Virus record (IMG/VR): IMGVR_UViG_3300025389_000011
DNA length: 64,000 nt
Source of the DNA: a virus
Taxonomy: Duplodnaviria > Caudoviricetes
Strand: one strand, 5' to 3'
Shown here: in pieces, positions 178 to 3,869 of the stretch
Layout: every line of letters begins with the position of its first letter
How positions within the stretch are numbered: position 1 is the first letter of the stretch
Program-made: the position numbers and the translations under genes
The notes under the pieces: model-generated
What the model saw: the letters and a program-made list of their open reading frames with translations, nothing else
The model's database searches: none
What the model was told of the DNA's origin: nothing

Positions 178-206
178 ATTATATGCCCAAAACGATTTAT
201 TGTCAA
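178..206 (-). promoter_or_regulatory. Consensus sigma70 (early-type) promoter
   Basis: Minus strand TTGACA (206-201), 17-nt spacer, TATAAT (183-178): perfect consensus upstream of the CDS starting at 149. Confidence 0.85.
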
Positions 207-222
207 ATTTTGGATAGATTGA

Positions 223-1227
223 CTATTTGATAGGAACTAGGTTGTCTCTAAAGATTTCCCATGCACGTTTCCAAGACCAACGAAAACTACCTTTCAGTAC
301 TTGATTTCTGTCTAATTGTAAACAGCTATCAATAGCATGGGTTAGGTTCTCATTCATGAACCCCGTGACCCCTTGTTCAATTACATCCATAGGACCTTGA
401 CAAGGGTATGCCGCAACTGGCGTACCACACGCCATTGCCTCAATCATTACAATACCAAATGTTTCCCATTGGCTGGGGAATACAAATACATCAGCATTTG
501 CATAATAGACTGCCAAGTCTTTACCTGTTTTGAAACCAACAAAATTAACATCAGGATATTTTTTCTTGTACGTTTCTAACATAGGACCATCACCAACCAT
601 TGTTTTTCTTGCGCCCGGATAATCTAATTCAAAAAAGTCTTCTAAGTTTTTTTCTTTGCTAACACGTGCAACGCACAATAAATCAATTACACCCACTTCA
701 CTATACTCATGTCTTTGTTTAGTATTGAAAATTGTTCTATCAACCCCACGTGTCCATGGAATAACTTCACCGTCAAATCCATGCTTACGTAATTCAGCAA
801 CCATGCTGTCAGTCGTTGTTAAAACCTTGCCACTATGCTTATGAAACCAGCGTACAAAGCGCCAAGTAAGTGATTCAGGTATTCCAAATAGTTTGTTAAG
901 TCCTTCAGGGAATTTAGTATGATAAGCAGTATTGTGCCTAATACCACATTTTGCAAGATATGCTCTAGCCCACAAACCAAGAGGACCTTCTGTGGCGATG
1001 TGGATATGATCCGGATCAATCTTCGCAATCTTCTTGCCCATGTTCCTTGGATAGCTAAGTTTGACTTCGTTGTAGCCAGGACAATCAATATAGCTGAACC
1101 ACCTGGGGTCAATATAATCAATAGTATAACCATCCAGTATCGCAGGAGCCTCAAGATTTTTGTAAGTCGTGACAACGCCATTGATTTGATCCGGTAAATT
1201 ATCCGTTATTATCAGTATTTTCTTCAT
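223..1227 (-). CDS. GT4 (GT-B) glycosyltransferase, Agt/MgtA-like diacylglycerol glycosyltransferase
   Basis: TDNLPDQINGVVTT, IHIATEGPLG, AYHTKFPE, WTRGVD, ARVSKEKN, VGDGP, ADVFVFPSQWETFGIVMIEAMACGTPV are the motifs of the Agt/MgtA branch of GT4. Confidence 0.85.
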   Translation of the reverse strand: MKKILIITDNLPDQINGVVTTYKNLEAPAILDGYTIDYIDPRWFSYIDCPGYNEVKLSYPRNMGKKIAKIDPDHIHIATEGPLGLWARAYLAKCGIRHNTAYHTKFPEGLNKLFGIPESLTWRFVRWFHKHSGKVLTTTDSMVAELRKHGFDGEVIPWTRGVDRTIFNTKQRHEYSEVGVIDLLCVARVSKEKNLEDFFELDYPGARKTMVGDGPMLETYKKKYPDVNFVGFKTGKDLAVYYANADVFVFPSQWETFGIVMIEAMACGTPVAAYPCQGPMDVIEQGVTGFMNENLTHAIDSCLQLDRNQVLKGSFRWSWKRAWEIFRDNLVPIK

Positions 1228-1303
1228 AAAATGTTTCTTTAATGGCTAAAATTAAAGTTAATCCAATCCAAAGCACAAACATGCTAATTATAAAATATTT
1301 CAT
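1199..1303 (-). CDS. 34-aa single-pass membrane peptide (not in ORF track)
   Basis: MKYFIISMFVLWIGLTLILAIKETFYEENTDNNG*. Start overlaps the rimK stop (ATGA); hydrophobic stretch followed by an acidic tail. Confidence 0.55.
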   Translation of the reverse strand: MKYFIISMFVLWIGLTLILAIKETFYEENTDNNG

Positions 1304-2184
1304 TTTGCTTTGAATTTAATGTATTCTGTAATGATATCTGCAACGTCTACATTACAGAATTTTTCAAAGCCAAAGAATCCTGGATTACTGTTAGCCTCAC
1401 AAACTCTGAAACCGTTTTCGTCAAACAATAAATCAATACCGGCAATGTCTAAACCTAATACATGTGCTGTTTCTCTAGCCATGAATTCAATTTCTTCTGT
1501 GAGAGGGTAATTTTCACCAGTACCGCCACCTGTGATATTAGCACGGAAGTCTCCTTCAGGCGCTGTACGTTTCATTGCACCTACAACTTTACCGCCAATA
1601 ACTAACACACGCAAATCTTCACCTGGTCTATGGCCCATGTATTCTTGTACAATCATGGTTTTCTTGTTTCCAAGTTTTTCTACAAACTCTACAAGTTTTT
1701 TATAATCTTTTTTACGTTCACATAAATGAACACCTTCGCCATAGCTACCGGTAACAACTTTAACTACACAGGGGAATCCAATGTTTTCACTAACCAATTT
1801 ATCTTCAATAGGCCAACGTACCAACATTGTGTTCGGGATCGGAATTCCTGCACGACTTAGTATTTGACTGGTACGCAATTTATCTTTAACAGTTTCGATT
1901 GCAACGCTTCCATTTACACATGGAATACCGCATTGTTCAAAATGTCTGATAACTGCTAATTGGAATGGGAGAATACCTGCACCTAATCTAACTAGTACTA
2001 GTCTAGGTAACTCCATGTCTTGACCTTTATACTTGATACCTTTACGAATATCTCTATTCACGACAATATCAAAATCGTCAGGGTGAGCCATCATGGCTTT
2101 AATGCCCTTGCTTTCAAAACTTTCAATCAATTTATTTGATTCGTATTCGTTTCGTTCTAACTTAGTTAATACTAATACTGTCAT
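1300..2184 (-). CDS. rimK: RimK-family ATP-grasp alpha-L-glutamate ligase
   Basis: DKLRTSQILSRAGIPIPNT, FPCVVKVVTGSYGEGV, VQEY, DLRVLVIGGKVVGAMKR, DFRANITGGG, GIDLL, CEANSNPGF. Confidence 0.9.
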   Translation of the reverse strand: MTVLVLTKLERNEYESNKLIESFESKGIKAMMAHPDDFDIVVNRDIRKGIKYKGQDMELPRLVLVRLGAGILPFQLAVIRHFEQCGIPCVNGSVAIETVKDKLRTSQILSRAGIPIPNTMLVRWPIEDKLVSENIGFPCVVKVVTGSYGEGVHLCERKKDYKKLVEFVEKLGNKKTMIVQEYMGHRPGEDLRVLVIGGKVVGAMKRTAPEGDFRANITGGGTGENYPLTEEIEFMARETAHVLGLDIAGIDLLFDENGFRVCEANSNPGFFGFEKFCNVDVADIITEYIKFKAK

Positions 2185-2932
2185 CGTTTGCTTTCGTCCA
2201 AGTTATTATTTCCCAATGCCCATCATGATGTTCTACTAATGCAGTCATTGATTCTACCCAGTCACCGTCATTCATGTAAATCACATCATCTATCATTTTT
2301 ATTTCTGCATGATGTATGTGTCCGCATATTACTCCATCAAATCCACGCTTTTTACAATAAGCTGTTATATTTTTTTCAAACTGAAACACAAAGTCTGCGG
2401 CTTTTTTAACTTTGTGTTTCAAAAATTTACTTAAGCTCCAATAACCTAATCCTAGTTTATGTCGTAACGCATTGAATTTACTGTTTAATTCTAATACAAT
2501 ATCATACATCTTGTCACCTAAAAAGGCTAACCAGGGTGCTAATTTAGTAATCCCATCAAACAAATCCCCATGCGTTACCAAATAGTGTCTGCCATCAATA
2601 CCTATATGCTCAGTTTGATTAACAATTTCTACTGCACCAAATCCCAATCCATACGGTATTAACGGCCTAAGAAATTCATCGTGATTTCCTGCTACATACA
2701 CAACTCTAGTGCCACGTTTGGCATGTCCTAAAACTCTACGAACTACATTGCTATGACTTTGTTTCCAACGCCATTTATTTTGTTGAATTTTCCAAGCATC
2801 AATAATATCTCCCACTAAGTAAAGTGTTTCACACGTATTGTGTTTTAAGAAATTATTAAGTTGTTCTGCTTTACAATCTCTTGTACCAAGATGAACATCA
2901 CTAATAAAAATGGTTCGGTATGTTTTTTTCAT
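2162..2932 (-). CDS. plcP: PlcP-like metallophosphoesterase (usually annotated UDP-2,3-diacylglucosamine diphosphatase)
   Basis: FISDVHLG, LVGDIIDAW, AGNHDEFLR, THGDLFD, GYWSLS, DGVICGHIHHA, YMNDGDWVES fit the PlcP subfamily (GDWVES, YWSLS) better than E. coli LpxH. The neighbouring Agt-like GT4 supports this. Confidence 0.75.
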   Translation of the reverse strand: MKKTYRTIFISDVHLGTRDCKAEQLNNFLKHNTCETLYLVGDIIDAWKIQQNKWRWKQSHSNVVRRVLGHAKRGTRVVYVAGNHDEFLRPLIPYGLGFGAVEIVNQTEHIGIDGRHYLVTHGDLFDGITKLAPWLAFLGDKMYDIVLELNSKFNALRHKLGLGYWSLSKFLKHKVKKAADFVFQFEKNITAYCKKRGFDGVICGHIHHAEIKMIDDVIYMNDGDWVESMTALVEHHDGHWEIITWTKANDDSISIN

Positions 2933-2937
2933 AGCAA

Positions 2938-2944
2938 TATTTAT
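2938..2944 (-). promoter_or_regulatory. T4-late-like promoter ATAAATA, 5 nt before the plcP ATG (possible leaderless mRNA)
   Basis: Minus strand GATAAATA-TTGCT-ATG; no SD present. Confidence 0.55.
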
Positions 2945-2955
2945 CTTGCTAGGTG

Positions 2956-3174
2956 TTAAGGACTTTTGATTGTTTCATCTAATTTTGGAGATACTTTTTG
3001 ATAGTATTCCTCAGGTGGATTAAAATTCCAACTATCTGCTGTAAAGATACGTATTGGTTTCCAATAATGATGCATAATGTTATTGATAACAATAATACCA
3101 ACTACAACTACCACCAATGCTAACATTGTTAGAATGCTACCAGCCAAAACTCTTGCGGCTATTTCCATATCCAT
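2956..3174 (-). CDS. Small single-pass membrane protein
   Basis: 72 aa with a long hydrophobic N-terminal segment; SD AGGAA upstream. Confidence 0.7.
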   Translation of the reverse strand: MDMEIAARVLAGSILTMLALVVVVVGIIVINNIMHHYWKPIRIFTADSWNFNPPEEYYQKVSPKLDETIKSP

Positions 3175-3205
3175 GCTAATTCCTATTACAAAAAACTAAT
3201 TATAC

Positions 3206-3236
3206 AAAAAAACAAAGGCTCTGTACAGAGCCTTTG
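3206..3236 (-). terminator. Rho-independent terminator after the OMP gene
   Basis: Perfect 24-bp palindrome CAAAGGCTCTGTACAGAGCCTTTG (3213-3236) followed by T7 on the minus strand. Confidence 0.85.
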
Positions 3237-3259: not shown

Positions 3260-3814
3260 TTAGAATGAACGTGTGTATGATAAGTTATAGCTATGATTTT
3301 GGCTATCACCACGAACGCGGTCATAACGTAAACCGATACTATCTTTCTTTGTCAATGCATAGCTTAAGCCAGCACGAACGGTATCTGTTGTATCATTGTA
3401 CACATTTGGGTCTACCATAGCAGTACGATAACGGAATCCAACTTTAGCAGTTGCTTTACCTAATGTGTAAGTAACACCAGGCTCAACGCTGTAGTAACCA
3501 AAATTAGCACCATTTGTATACTTTTCACCAACTGCAACACGTGTATAAACACCAGCTGGTCCGAATGATAATGCACCAGTTACACCAGCTTCCAAACGTG
3601 TACTTAATACGTCAGTTGCTTGTTGTTGATAATTGGTAAAACTTACGTCACCTGCAAAAGTATTGTTGATTGATTCTTTTACAGAAACTTGGTAGTTAGT
3701 TGAATTTTTAGCACCTTTGTCACCTAATTGGTCTTGACCTTCTAGGGTAACACTAGCGGCTGATACGAAACCAGCAAAAGCCATTAGGGCTAAAGTTAAA
3801 GCGAGTTTTTTCAT
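3260..3814 (-). CDS. Outer-membrane beta-barrel protein (porin/OMP-like)
   Basis: Signal peptide MKKLALTLALMAFAGFVSA, alternating amphipathic strands with Gly/aromatic residues, C-terminal YNLSYTRSF ending in Phe (BAM-type signal). SD AAAAGGAAA. Confidence 0.75.
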   Translation of the reverse strand: MKKLALTLALMAFAGFVSAASVTLEGQDQLGDKGAKNSTNYQVSVKESINNTFAGDVSFTNYQQQATDVLSTRLEAGVTGALSFGPAGVYTRVAVGEKYTNGANFGYYSVEPGVTYTLGKATAKVGFRYRTAMVDPNVYNDTTDTVRAGLSYALTKKDSIGLRYDRVRGDSQNHSYNLSYTRSF

Positions 3815-3862: not shown

Positions 3863-3869
3863 TATTTAT
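3863..3869 (-). promoter_or_regulatory. Late-type promoter ATAAATA upstream of the OMP gene
   Basis: Motif in the intergenic gap 49 nt before the ATG; same motif recurs at other operon heads. Confidence 0.5.

Follow-up and report, generated by a model that had tools for sequence, protein, structure and literature searches.

A gene cluster carried by a giant uncultured lake phage is best explained, with a probability of about 0.7, as a phage-borne module for phospholipid-to-glycolipid remodeling, the phage counterpart of the PlcP-Agt pathway with which bacteria renovate their lipids. A PlcP-type phosphoesterase would cut the phospho-head group from host glycerophospholipids to leave diacylglycerol, and a GT4 glycosyltransferase would move a sugar from a UDP-sugar onto the diacylglycerol to give a phosphorus-free glycolipid. 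The net effect during infection would likely be the liberation of membrane phosphorus for phage DNA synthesis with the membrane left intact. The evidence consists of gene structure, family placement, synteny, motif conservation, promoter comparison and purifying selection, and from these we infer the enzymatic activities, the substrates, the timing of expression and the benefit to the phage.

Organization of the gene cluster

The window is the whole stretch of 64,000 nucleotides that was analyzed. The three enzyme genes are all on the minus strand and are transcribed in the order plcP, ATP-grasp, GT4. The features of the cluster are given below in the direction of transcription.

3213..3236, minus strand: intrinsic terminator (10-bp stem and T-run)
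3199..3227, minus strand: sigma-70-like promoter TGTACA-17-TATAAT, 10/12 consensus matches, ahead of the small membrane-protein gene
2956..3174, minus strand: small72, a 72-aa single-pass membrane protein (ORF call)
2954..2960, minus strand: CTTAACA, apparent half-site remnant of a Pho-box-like repeat (by-eye alignment with related phage locus L113)
2938..2944, minus strand: ATAAATA, as GATAAATA, with the TAAATA core at 2938-2943; a -10-like element conserved in relatives
2162..2932, minus strand: plcP, predicted PlcP-type metallophosphoesterase, 256 aa, LpxH-like fold, GNHD (family, tree, motif, model)
1300..2184, minus strand: RimK-family ATP-grasp protein, alpha-L-glutamate-ligase-like, 294 aa (TIGR00768)
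223..1227, minus strand: Agt/GTcp-type GT4 glycosyltransferase, 334 aa (PF00534, PF13439, orthogroup)
178..206, minus strand: perfect sigma-70 consensus promoter TTGACA-17-TATAAT of the next gene, the downstream boundary of the cluster

The sequence-only reading had placed a metallophosphoesterase gene at 2162-2932 and a GT4 gene at 223-1227 on the minus strand, and both were found there. Its description of the two as one operon pair stands in part: they belong to a same-strand cluster, but they are not adjacent. The ATP-grasp gene between them (1300-2184) had been overlooked, as had the 72-aa membrane-protein gene (2956-3174) that precedes plcP.

The 3' end of plcP and the ATP-grasp gene share 23 nt. 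The stop codon of small72 is located 23 nt ahead of the plcP start, and small72 is itself preceded by the terminator and the sigma-70-like promoter. The terminator ends the upstream porin-like gene and marks the upstream boundary of the cluster; no terminator was found 3' of the GT4 gene. The promoter at 3199..3227 is the likely start of a small72-plcP-ATP-grasp-GT4 transcript in this genome; it is a consensus match only, and such sites are no more numerous in this region than in shuffled sequence. No match to small72 was found in Pfam or NCBIfam. Homologues are present in phage loci L103, L113, L117, L187 and L190, and small72 is a mobile small gene that takes varied positions near plcP among the relatives. 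Purifying selection acts on each of the three enzymes: comparisons with phage homologues give pN of 0.14-0.20, pS of 0.64-0.82 and dN/dS of about 0.06-0.14. The cluster is located inside a hypervariable island of envelope-related genes that include a porin-like OMP and a secreted repeat protein, and the corresponding islands of relatives add DD-carboxypeptidases and an adhesin-like protein.

The phosphoesterase and the glycosyltransferase

The phosphoesterase matches PF00149 with 42 bits (cut-off 21.5). Calcineurin-type dimetal sites are recognized by the motifs DxH, GD, GNH[DE], H and GHxH, and the site is intact in the phage protein, with D12, H14, D42, N83, H84, H121, H205 and H207 invariant in 43 homologues. 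Thousands of homologues are found at >80% identity, several of them on contigs of ~340 kb, and the phage homologues are labeled in public databases as 'UDP-2,3-diacylglucosamine pyrophosphatase LpxH'. Clustering with LpxH was the outcome that the sequence-only reading had set against its own proposal, and it was not obtained. Scores of 49.7 and 38.1 bits against the LpxH families fall below the cut-offs of 134 and 190. The phage enzyme carries GNHD, as do 156 of the 163 PlcP-type ORFs with high scores (no motif match was returned for the other 7), versus GNRD in 6/6 LpxH proteins. In a maximum-likelihood tree, LpxH and the PlcP type are split at 100/100 and the phage copies form a single clade within the PlcP type.

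The cellular relatives give the same separation. Each of the five beta/gammaproteobacterial genomes with the closest relatives also encodes a true LpxH (213-332 bits), and the PlcP-type copies in four of those five score 38-55 bits against LpxH. Five alphaproteobacterial genomes contain the PlcP type only, without LpxH. The phage protein shares 50-57% identity with cellular members of the PlcP type. By these comparisons the phosphoesterase is a paralog distinct from true LpxH, and it is predicted to be a PlcP-type phospholipase C that releases diacylglycerol. PlcP enzymes are Mn-dependent members of the LpxH-like metallophosphoesterases that act on PE, PG or PC.

An AlphaFold2 model of the phosphoesterase was obtained with a pLDDT of 89.7, in which the helices across residues 122-196 correspond to an LpxH-like helical cap inserted in the core. 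The best 25 PDB fold matches to the model are all LpxH structures, including lipid-X complexes, with TM scores of 0.5-0.6, and a fold search of Swiss-Prot with the same model returned LpxH entries only and no PlcP. The phage enzyme thus resembles LpxH (PDB 5B49, 5K8K and 6PH9) in its metallophosphoesterase core, the helical lipid-binding cap and all of the dimetal ligands. It differs from LpxH in an identity of 17-22%, in GNHD for GNRD and in scoring below every LpxH family cut-off.

The GT4 protein contains the GT-B domains PF00534 (87 bits) and PF13439 (53 bits) and aligns end to end over its full length with plcP-linked GT4 enzymes at 37-45% identity. This identity clearly exceeds the <25% seen with other GT4 enzymes. 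The characterized enzyme GTcp of SAR11 strain HTCC7211 has the same length of 334 aa (PMC8231724). The catalytic His104 of GTcp and its diacylglycerol-binding residues Thr162, Arg163 and Trp320 (PMC8231724) are kept in the phage protein, where they align with H103, T159-R160 and W319. Cellular homologues share the His in 49/49 cases and the Trp in 48/49, and the motifs HT[KR]FP and W[TS]RGV appear in nearly all of the 39 phage GT4 homologues. Both UDP-sugar motifs are variant. GRVAxEKN and FPSxTDTFG of GTcp, with the catalytic Asp256 (PMC8231724), appear in the phage protein as ARVSKEKN and FPSQWETFG, the latter with Asp replaced by Glu and Thr by Trp; FPSxTDTFG is the usual form in cellular enzymes. 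The WE pair is present in 35 of the 39 phage copies, and the Glu in 10 of 49 cellular plcP-linked GT4 enzymes. A D-to-E change in GTcp lowered the in vitro activity by >90% (PMC8231724). Because Glu takes the place of the catalytic Asp, the phage GT4 may use another donor or acceptor.

Gene order connects the two enzymes. Of the 80 closest cellular plcP loci, none of them from the model strains, 49 have a same-strand GT4 homologue (185-270 bits) directly downstream of plcP. This arrangement is seen in 8/8 loci from alphaproteobacterial genomes, five of which come from genomes of 1.2-1.6 Mb with 29-33% GC. Among the best 40 GT4 matches (401 alphaproteobacterial species), 38 abut a PlcP match in the order plcP then GT, as counted by inspection of the coordinates by eye. 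In related phages the GT4 gene directly adjoins plcP in about 25 of 80 loci; here the ATP-grasp gene intervenes. Alignment and synteny place the GT4 in the plcP-linked Agt/GTcp orthogroup, and it is predicted to be a diacylglycerol glycosyl- or glucuronosyltransferase; enzymes of this clade use UDP-sugars as donors of Glc, Gal or GlcA. Within the limits of sequence evidence, the earlier assignments to the PlcP type and to an Agt-like GT4 therefore stand.

The cluster has both enzyme families, their order and their strand in common with the 'type 2' plcP-agt arrangement of bacteria described by Sebastian et al. 2016 (PMC4796936). It differs from the bacterial operon in its carrier, a roughly 350-kb lytic-type T4-like phage, in the ATP-grasp gene inserted between plcP and agt, in the sugar motif FPSxWETFG for FPSxTDTFG, and in the decay of the Pho box in this copy. 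The characterized reference proteins are the PlcP and Agt proteins SMc00171, MED193_17359, PB7211_983/960, Atu2297 and PA3219. Orthology to them is proposed from synteny, from published motifs and lengths, and from proxy genomes, the nearest of which are the five small, low-GC alphaproteobacterial genomes (1.2-1.6 Mb, 29-33% GC) that have plcP-GT pairs.

Promoter elements and the phosphate link

The sequence-only reading had reported no Pho box upstream of the cluster, a late-type ATAAATA in its place, and a pathway uncoupled from host PhoB control. The absence of the box was borne out. The best score of the Pho-box position weight matrix (PWM) was -12.0 in the 80 nt upstream of plcP and -4.5 before small72, compared with 8.4 for the 99th percentile of control upstream regions, so that by this matrix no Pho-box-like repeat precedes either gene in the window. 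The E. coli-type Pho box CTGTCAT-N4-CTGTCAT, with <=3 mismatches allowed, had no match near the cluster.

The relatives contain a repeat of the form TGT[AC]A[TC]-N5-TGT[AC]A[TC] (TGTAAT/TGTCAT, 11-bp period), which was detected upstream of plcP in 28/72 relatives using the strict pattern and in 41/72 using the PWM. The same repeat appears in 11 of 1149 control upstream regions, and 9 of those 11 belong to pstS. An nnTAAATA element is positioned 10 nt downstream of the repeat and 5-6 nt before the ATG, at -11/-12. A repeat with a -10 element 10 nt downstream is the classic geometry of a Pho promoter. The same small72-plcP layout with an intact TGTAACAGATTTGTAACA box is present in locus L113, to which the CTTAACA of this genome was aligned by eye. 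CTTAACA corresponds to a remnant of the promoter-proximal half-site, and the distal half-site is unrecognizable. The comparison indicates that the Pho box of plcP has decayed in this genome.

A late promoter was considered for ATAAATA (2938-2944) and rejected. In a T4-type late promoter, TATAAATA is placed some 20-50 nt before the start codon and the leader includes a ribosome-binding site. The sequence here is GATAAATA rather than TATAAATA, it ends only 5 nt before the plcP ATG, and in relatives it follows the Pho-box-like repeat with Pho-promoter spacing; TATAAATA occurs 3 times in the window and in no case at the plcP cluster. The element is thus poor evidence for late expression and fits better as the -10 element in a Pho-box promoter. 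No Shine-Dalgarno sequence separates it from the ATG, a spacing that suggests a leaderless or near-leaderless mRNA.

The claim of uncoupling from PhoB divides accordingly. Loss of PhoB control is plausible in this genome because its Pho box has decayed, but it does not extend to the module as a whole, for which 41/72 relatives retain the repeat. Because the box has decayed, transcription here would probably proceed from the sigma-70-like promoter before small72, from the surviving -10 element, or from both. No intact Pho box is present in the window, and phosphate-responsive expression of the genes is therefore without support in this genome. The window also lacks pstS, and no PstS-like ORF was found in 103 kb of this genome. 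Two strict Pho-like repeats in the same 103 kb are both inside genes and are probably due to chance.

In most related phages the module would be driven by a PhoB-type promoter composed of the Pho-box-like repeat and the TAAATA -10. The repeat is common to plcP and phage pstS in most relatives, and the two genes are often neighbors; in Pelagibacter phage Mosig the phosphoesterase homologue adjoins pstS. The earlier proposal that the phage mines host membranes for phosphorus gains support from this shared promoter and adjacency. The promoter in relatives is of the same kind as that of the bacterial PlcP-Agt operon, whose known members include SAR11 HTCC7211 PlcP and GTcp and Agrobacterium Agt (Atu2297). 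The pstS-type repeat before plcP in relatives also recalls the pstS and phoA genes of cyanophages and pelagimyophages, which are under host PhoB control (PMC12379486). The predicted role of PlcP differs from these auxiliary metabolic genes in that phosphorus would be released from the host's own membrane and not taken up.

Alternative genes downstream of plcP in relatives encode an OlsB-type N-acyltransferase or a GT2/GT21-like transferase, which are likewise lipid enzymes, and a fatty-acid desaturase gene is found near plcP in relatives. Linkage to a gene for phosphorus-free lipid synthesis (agt, btaAB, GT21 or olsB) is expected of a plcP, and here the Agt-type GT4 gene of the cluster provides it. 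One 95%-complete relative contains plcP and lacks both GT4 and ATP-grasp, so the phage family can do without glycolipid synthesis.

The companion ligase, competing explanations and significance

The ATP-grasp protein was identified as a RimK family member by its full-length match to TIGR00768 (229.3 bits, cut-off 143.4), and PF18030 (pre-ATP-grasp) and PF08443 both match it. It resembles RimK ligases such as Pseudomonas RimK (PDB 7QYR) in having the pre-ATP-grasp and ATP-grasp domains at full length, and it is 44-47% identical to the T4-like cyanophage protein named 'ribosomal protein S6 glutaminyl transferase'. It is not S6-RimK: the score against that equivalog is 158.5 bits with a cut-off of 331, and no RimB-like protease partner was found for the phage protein. 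In these phages the gene is linked to plcP. In a genome with both kinds, a Zn_protease-paired canonical RimK (153 bits) is distinct from the gene of the phage-like subfamily (217 bits). In the closest cellular subfamily the partner is a class-II glutamine-amidotransferase-like (GATase_4) gene and not a lipid gene; no GATase_4 partner was found in this genome or in the related phage loci searched.

The ligase is a recurrent companion of phage plcP that the bacterial PlcP-Agt pathway does not need. That it contributes a third function to a phage phosphate-stress program, acting by modification of a PlcP/Agt product or by glutamylation of host proteins, is judged quite unlikely. In the former case it would amidate the carboxylate of glucuronosyl-diacylglycerol or the released head group to give a new amino-acid-bearing lipid or metabolite; in the latter, glutamylation would redirect resources under phosphorus limitation. 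If true, such a role would be new for the RimK family and would represent a new kind of viral auxiliary metabolic gene. The narrower proposal of a three-gene pathway, in which the ligase amidates or glutamylates a carboxylate that PlcP and the GT4 produce (such as the uronic acid of glucuronosyl-diacylglycerol, or a released head group), is very doubtful. In its favor, the ATP-grasp gene adjoins plcP at about 25 of the 35 phage loci that are informative, in three different orders (plcP-AG-GT4, plcP-GT4-AG or AG-plcP), and its start usually overlaps the plcP stop. In locus L214 a lone copy is preceded by a Pho-box-like repeat and a TAAATA element of its own. Carboxylates are what ATP-grasp enzymes activate, and a glucuronosyl lipid is among the products that Agt/GTcp can form (PMC8231724). 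On the other side, ATP-grasp is present in 0/80 of the closest cellular plcP loci, about 10 phage loci have it without any plcP within 3.5 kb, and the cyanophage homologues are located amid photosynthesis and purine genes without plcP. The pairing of the closest cellular subfamily with GATase_4 also argues against the proposal, as does the retention of the ligase beside plcP even where an OlsB-like or GT2 gene replaces GT4. We know of no RimK-family member that acts on a sugar or a lipid.

Two further explanations reassign the purpose of the enzyme pair. Lipids could be remodeled to change the host surface or membrane, as a block to superinfection or as tuning for assembly and lysis, and not to harvest phosphorus. 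The location in an envelope-gene island and the absence of a Pho box in this copy are consistent with such a purpose, membrane lipid composition has been linked to phage adsorption (PMC9938194, PMC9804370), and the same interpretation was given to pelagimyophage glycosyltransferases (PMC7029224). It is nevertheless unlikely, for the plcP of most relatives has the pstS-type promoter and often adjoins pstS, an indication that phosphate stress is the setting in which it is selected, and glycolipids of the inner membrane are not obvious receptors. The remaining explanation, an LpxH-type lipid A enzyme that together with an LPS/glycan GT4 modifies LPS, is extremely improbable and already contradicted by the sequence evidence, despite the database name of the phage homologues and LpxH being the nearest solved fold. 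The scores are about 1/3 to 1/5 of the LpxH cut-offs, the motif (GNHD) and the clade (split at 100/100) both differ from those of LpxH, true LpxH coexists with the PlcP type while LpxH-less Alphaproteobacteria still have the latter, and the GT4 specifically matches the plcP-linked orthogroup. Phosphorus harvest by phospholipid-to-glycolipid remodeling is the preferred explanation.

No published account of a phage plcP or of a phage PlcP-Agt pair was found in the searchable literature, where papers combining plcP, phage and lipid remodeling treat host lipids and not phage genes. Surveys of viral auxiliary metabolic genes miss phage plcP because it is labeled 'LpxH'. Two particulars come from this window: the RimK-type ligase that repeatedly travels with phage plcP and a natural variant with a decayed Pho box, a useful comparator for PhoB control. 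Phage pstS and phoA are the standard examples of how viruses reprogram hosts that are short of nutrients, and membrane phospholipids are a sizeable cellular pool of phosphorus. If the preferred explanation is true, the mining of host membrane phospholipids would be a second phage route to phosphorus beside uptake, and infection could alter the membrane lipids of bacterioplankton in lakes and oceans.

Organization of the gene cluster

The window corresponds, in reverse complement, to positions 25547-89546 on a 103-kb IMG/VR contig, which represents an estimated 29% of the genome (roughly 350 kb) of a T4-like, uncultured jumbo phage. Both genes and the ATAAATA motif at 2938-2944 recognized in the sequence-only reading are real, but an ATP-grasp gene between the pair and a small gene in front of it had been overlooked. 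The features of the region are listed below.

Features of the lipid cluster and its boundaries
3260-3814, minus strand: porin-like gene, 184-aa secreted protein; its own transcription unit just upstream of the lipid cluster
3236-3213, minus strand: clean terminator at the end of the porin-like gene
3227-3199, minus strand: sigma-70-like promoter
2956-3174, minus strand: gene for a single-pass membrane protein, 72 aa
2938-2944, minus strand: ATAAATA upstream of plcP
2162-2932, minus strand: metallophosphoesterase gene (plcP), 256 aa
1300-2184, minus strand: ATP-grasp gene, 294 aa; 23-nt overlap with the metallophosphoesterase gene
223-1227, minus strand: GT4 glycosyltransferase gene, 334 aa
206-178, minus strand: promoter of the next gene, TTGACA-17-TATAAT, matching the sigma-70 consensus at 12/12 positions right after the GT4 stop codon

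The consensus promoter at 178-206 suggests use of early or middle promoters recognized by host RNAP in this accessory region. The three enzymes evolve under strong purifying selection relative to their phage homologues, with dN/dS values of 0.06-0.14 and near-saturated synonymous sites. The 184-aa protein encoded at 3260-3814 gives a weak match to Porin_4, slightly under the Pfam cut-off, and may alternatively be a small outer-membrane beta-barrel. An ATAAATA at 3863-3869 accompanies this minus-strand gene, and porin-like homologues are again found near plcP in the related phage loci L100, L104, L121, and L142.

Assignment of the phosphoesterase and the glycosyltransferase

Phage homologues of the phosphoesterase are annotated as LpxH in public databases. 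Against two NCBIfam LpxH models with cut-offs of 134 and 190 bits, the phage protein reaches only 49.7 and 38.1 bits. Its nearest cellular relatives (50-57% identity) are from Burkholderiales, Rhodospirillales, Caulobacterales, Sphingomonadales, and Pseudomonas. A true LpxH (213-332 bits) is present in all five beta/gammaproteobacterial genomes of the closest-relative kind; the PlcP-type copies, matched in four of these five, score 38-55 bits on the LpxH models, as the phage protein does. In five of five alphaproteobacterial genomes no gene exceeds the LpxH cut-off and the PlcP type alone is present. Alphaproteobacteria use LpxI at the LpxH step of lipid A synthesis.

In the maximum-likelihood tree, six LpxH sequences (including that of E. 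coli) are split from 95 PlcP-type sequences with support of 100/100. The phage copies group in a single clade (100/99), to which the copy of the pelagimyophage Mosig is a weakly supported sister. The motif GNHD appears in every one of the 156 high-scoring PlcP-type ORFs that gave a motif match (seven others gave none), and GNRD in all six LpxH sequences. The AlphaFold model (pLDDT 89.7) consists of a metallophosphoesterase core with a helical cap, and its best solved matches are LpxH structures, including lipid-X complexes, with TM scores of only 0.5-0.6 at 17-21% identity. As modelled, the phosphoesterase has an LpxH-like lipid phosphoesterase fold yet is a different enzyme from LpxH. The public annotation is contradicted by the low scores, the coexistence with LpxH, the separate clade, the GNHD motif, and the weak fold match.

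The phage GT4 (334 aa) aligns end to end with plcP-linked GT4 proteins at 37-45% identity. GTcp, the Agt-type GT4 of SAR11 strain HTCC7211, is also 334 aa long, and its clade shares <25% identity with other GT4 enzymes (PMC8231724). In GTcp, His104 is catalytic, and Thr162, Arg163, and Trp320 bind diacylglycerol (PMC8231724); the counterparts H103, T159-R160, and W319 are kept in the phage enzyme. The second UDP-sugar motif (residues 250-258) reads FPSxWETFG in 35 of 39 phage copies, while cellular GT4 proteins mostly carry FPSxTDTFG, with E in 10 of 49 cellular copies. Because the D256E substitution crippled GTcp in vitro (PMC8231724), the sugar-donor preference of the phage GT4 may be altered.

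Of the 80 closest cellular loci, 49 have a homologue of the phage GT4 (185-270 bits) as the next gene after the PlcP-type gene, in the same orientation. Across 401 evenly sampled alphaproteobacterial species, a full-length GT4 match (E<=1e-30) was obtained for 154, mostly exactly one per genome, and a PlcP-type match for 140. Among the 40 best GT4 matches, 38 abut a PlcP match in the order plcP to GT, as read from coordinates by eye. The pair is present in all eight alphaproteobacterial loci that were examined, in the adjacent plcP-agt arrangement designated "type 2" by Sebastian et al. (PMC4796936). Five of the eight loci belong to genomes measuring 1.2-1.6 Mb with a GC content of 29-33%, and GRVAxEKN and FPSxTDTFG, the published GTcp motifs (PMC8231724), occur in most of the glycosyltransferases at these five loci.

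The ATP-grasp ligase and alternative partners of plcP

The ATP-grasp protein is a clear member of the RimK family (TIGR00768, 229 bits versus 143). Assignment as an S6-RimK, MptN, CofF, or LysX equivalog was rejected, each score being about half its cut-off or below. The ligase is absent from 80 of 80 cellular plcP loci. A profile search returned 39 phage loci, and plcP lies within 3.5 kb of the ligase in ~25 of the 35 that are informative. The ligase directly follows plcP in the orders plcP-AG-GT4, plcP-AG, plcP-AG-OlsB-like, and plcP-AG-GT2 (AG, ATP-grasp); plcP-GT4-AG is found in a lineage with a more divergent ligase (55% identity), and AG-plcP is a third order. The ligase stands alone in ~10 loci. 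In one of these loci (L214), the gene has its own upstream Pho-box-like repeat, TAAATA, 5-6 nt, and ATG (3460-3503), with a position weight matrix (PWM) score of 13.8, and the ligase itself may thus be phosphate-responsive in some phages. Homologues in T4-like cyanophages (44-47% identity) have unrelated surroundings, either psbA/psbD with purine genes or plastocyanin.

The closest cellular ligase subfamily (39-45% identity) has a class-II glutamine-amidotransferase-like (GATase_4) partner in three of five loci (L205, L207, and L209, from gammaproteobacterial-class genomes), a two-gene module that appears uncharacterised. This subfamily differs from the canonical pair of RimK and a Zn-protease (rimK-rimB) present in the same genome. 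The ligase is best read as an independent auxiliary gene of these phages that recurs beside plcP and may share its regulation; direct involvement in lipid remodelling is a possible but unsupported alternative.

Among the 80 nearest viral loci, plcP is the constant member, found alone, with GT4, or with both ATP-grasp and GT4. A 95%-complete relative of 332 kb carries plcP and lacks GT4 and ATP-grasp genome-wide. Alternatively, phage plcP can be followed by a GT2/GT21-like transferase or by an OlsB-type N-acyltransferase (PF13444). The former (240 aa; L188:5046-5768, L087:6880-7596, and L149:6907-7629) recalls the bacterial processive GT21 lipid glycosyltransferases found beside plcP. The latter, an OlsB/FeeM-type N-acyl amino acid synthase, takes the place of GT4 after plcP and ATP-grasp in L183:4885-5544 (plus strand), L211, and L223, which hints at phage-driven aminolipid synthesis. 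The island in relatives also contains a fatty-acid desaturase (L183:7593-8294 and L084:9581-10285, both minus strand) and a 679-aa CHASE2-adenylate/guanylate cyclase (L183:5553-7592 and L084:2950-4989). The alternative downstream genes of the phages mirror the alternative plcP neighbourhoods of bacteria (PMC4796936), which supports a role in lipid remodelling.

Promoter architecture and predicted function

The 45 nt upstream of plcP were aligned for 72 related phage loci. The common architecture is TGT[AC]A[TC]n-N4-TGT[AC]A[TC]n, ~10 nt, nnTAAATA, 5-6 nt, and ATG, a direct repeat with an 11-bp period and no Shine-Dalgarno sequence before the ATG. Exact TGTCAC/TGTCAT pairs occur in some loci. 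The strict repeat precedes plcP in 28 of the 72 loci; among 1149 other ORFs of these loci it precedes 11, nine of which encode PstS-type phosphate-binding proteins (GAGATFP signature; PF12849 in the single protein tested). With the PWM, the region upstream of plcP scores above the 99th control percentile in 41 of 72 loci. Established PhoB-dependent promoters have a pair of 7-bp repeats separated by 4 bp, 10 bp upstream of the -10 hexamer. The phage plcP promoter is probably of the PhoB type with ATAAATA as its -10 element, and this layout predicts a near-leaderless transcript that would start at or next to the plcP ATG.

A phage pstS adjoins plcP in L094:4900-5889, L109, L135, L139, L143-L145, and L150, and the same TGTAAT/TGTCAT repeat (11-bp period) lies 56-72 nt ahead of its start. 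The two genes with their common repeat define a small putative phage "Pho regulon". The 103-kb contig of this genome contains no pstS.

The absence of a Pho box noted in the sequence-only reading is correct for this genome: the PWM scan of the window gave -12.0 upstream of plcP and -4.5 upstream of the small gene, with no Pho-like repeat. Locus L113 has the same layout of small gene and plcP, with an intact box overlapping the stop codon of the small gene; in an alignment by eye, only CTTAACA (2954-2960) is left in the window as a remnant of the proximal half-site. Uncoupling from PhoB, which had been proposed for the pathway, is plausible for this decayed copy but is not a trait of the module, the box being kept in 41 of 72 relatives by PWM; judged by this comparison, it would be a derived state. 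The designation of ATAAATA as late-type is not supported here, since in relatives TAAATA sits ~10 nt after the Pho-box-like repeat in a -10 layout. ATAAATA is depleted across the window (17 found versus ~46 expected), and several coding-strand (minus) copies (3863, 9092, 39729, and 42017) precede gene starts by 20-50 nt. The motif may therefore have a dual use, serving also as the late-promoter motif of this phage elsewhere in the window.

In the literature library searched, no paper connects plcP with auxiliary metabolism, and the homologue is not mentioned as lipid remodelling in the Mosig genome record or in the pelagimyophage papers PMC7029224 and PMC12379486. The available sequence tests place the phage module in the PlcP and Agt families. 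It differs from the bacterial PlcP-Agt pathway in being carried by a phage, in the insertion of a ligase gene, in its WE sugar motif, and in the decay of its Pho box, and it is predicted to work in the same way.
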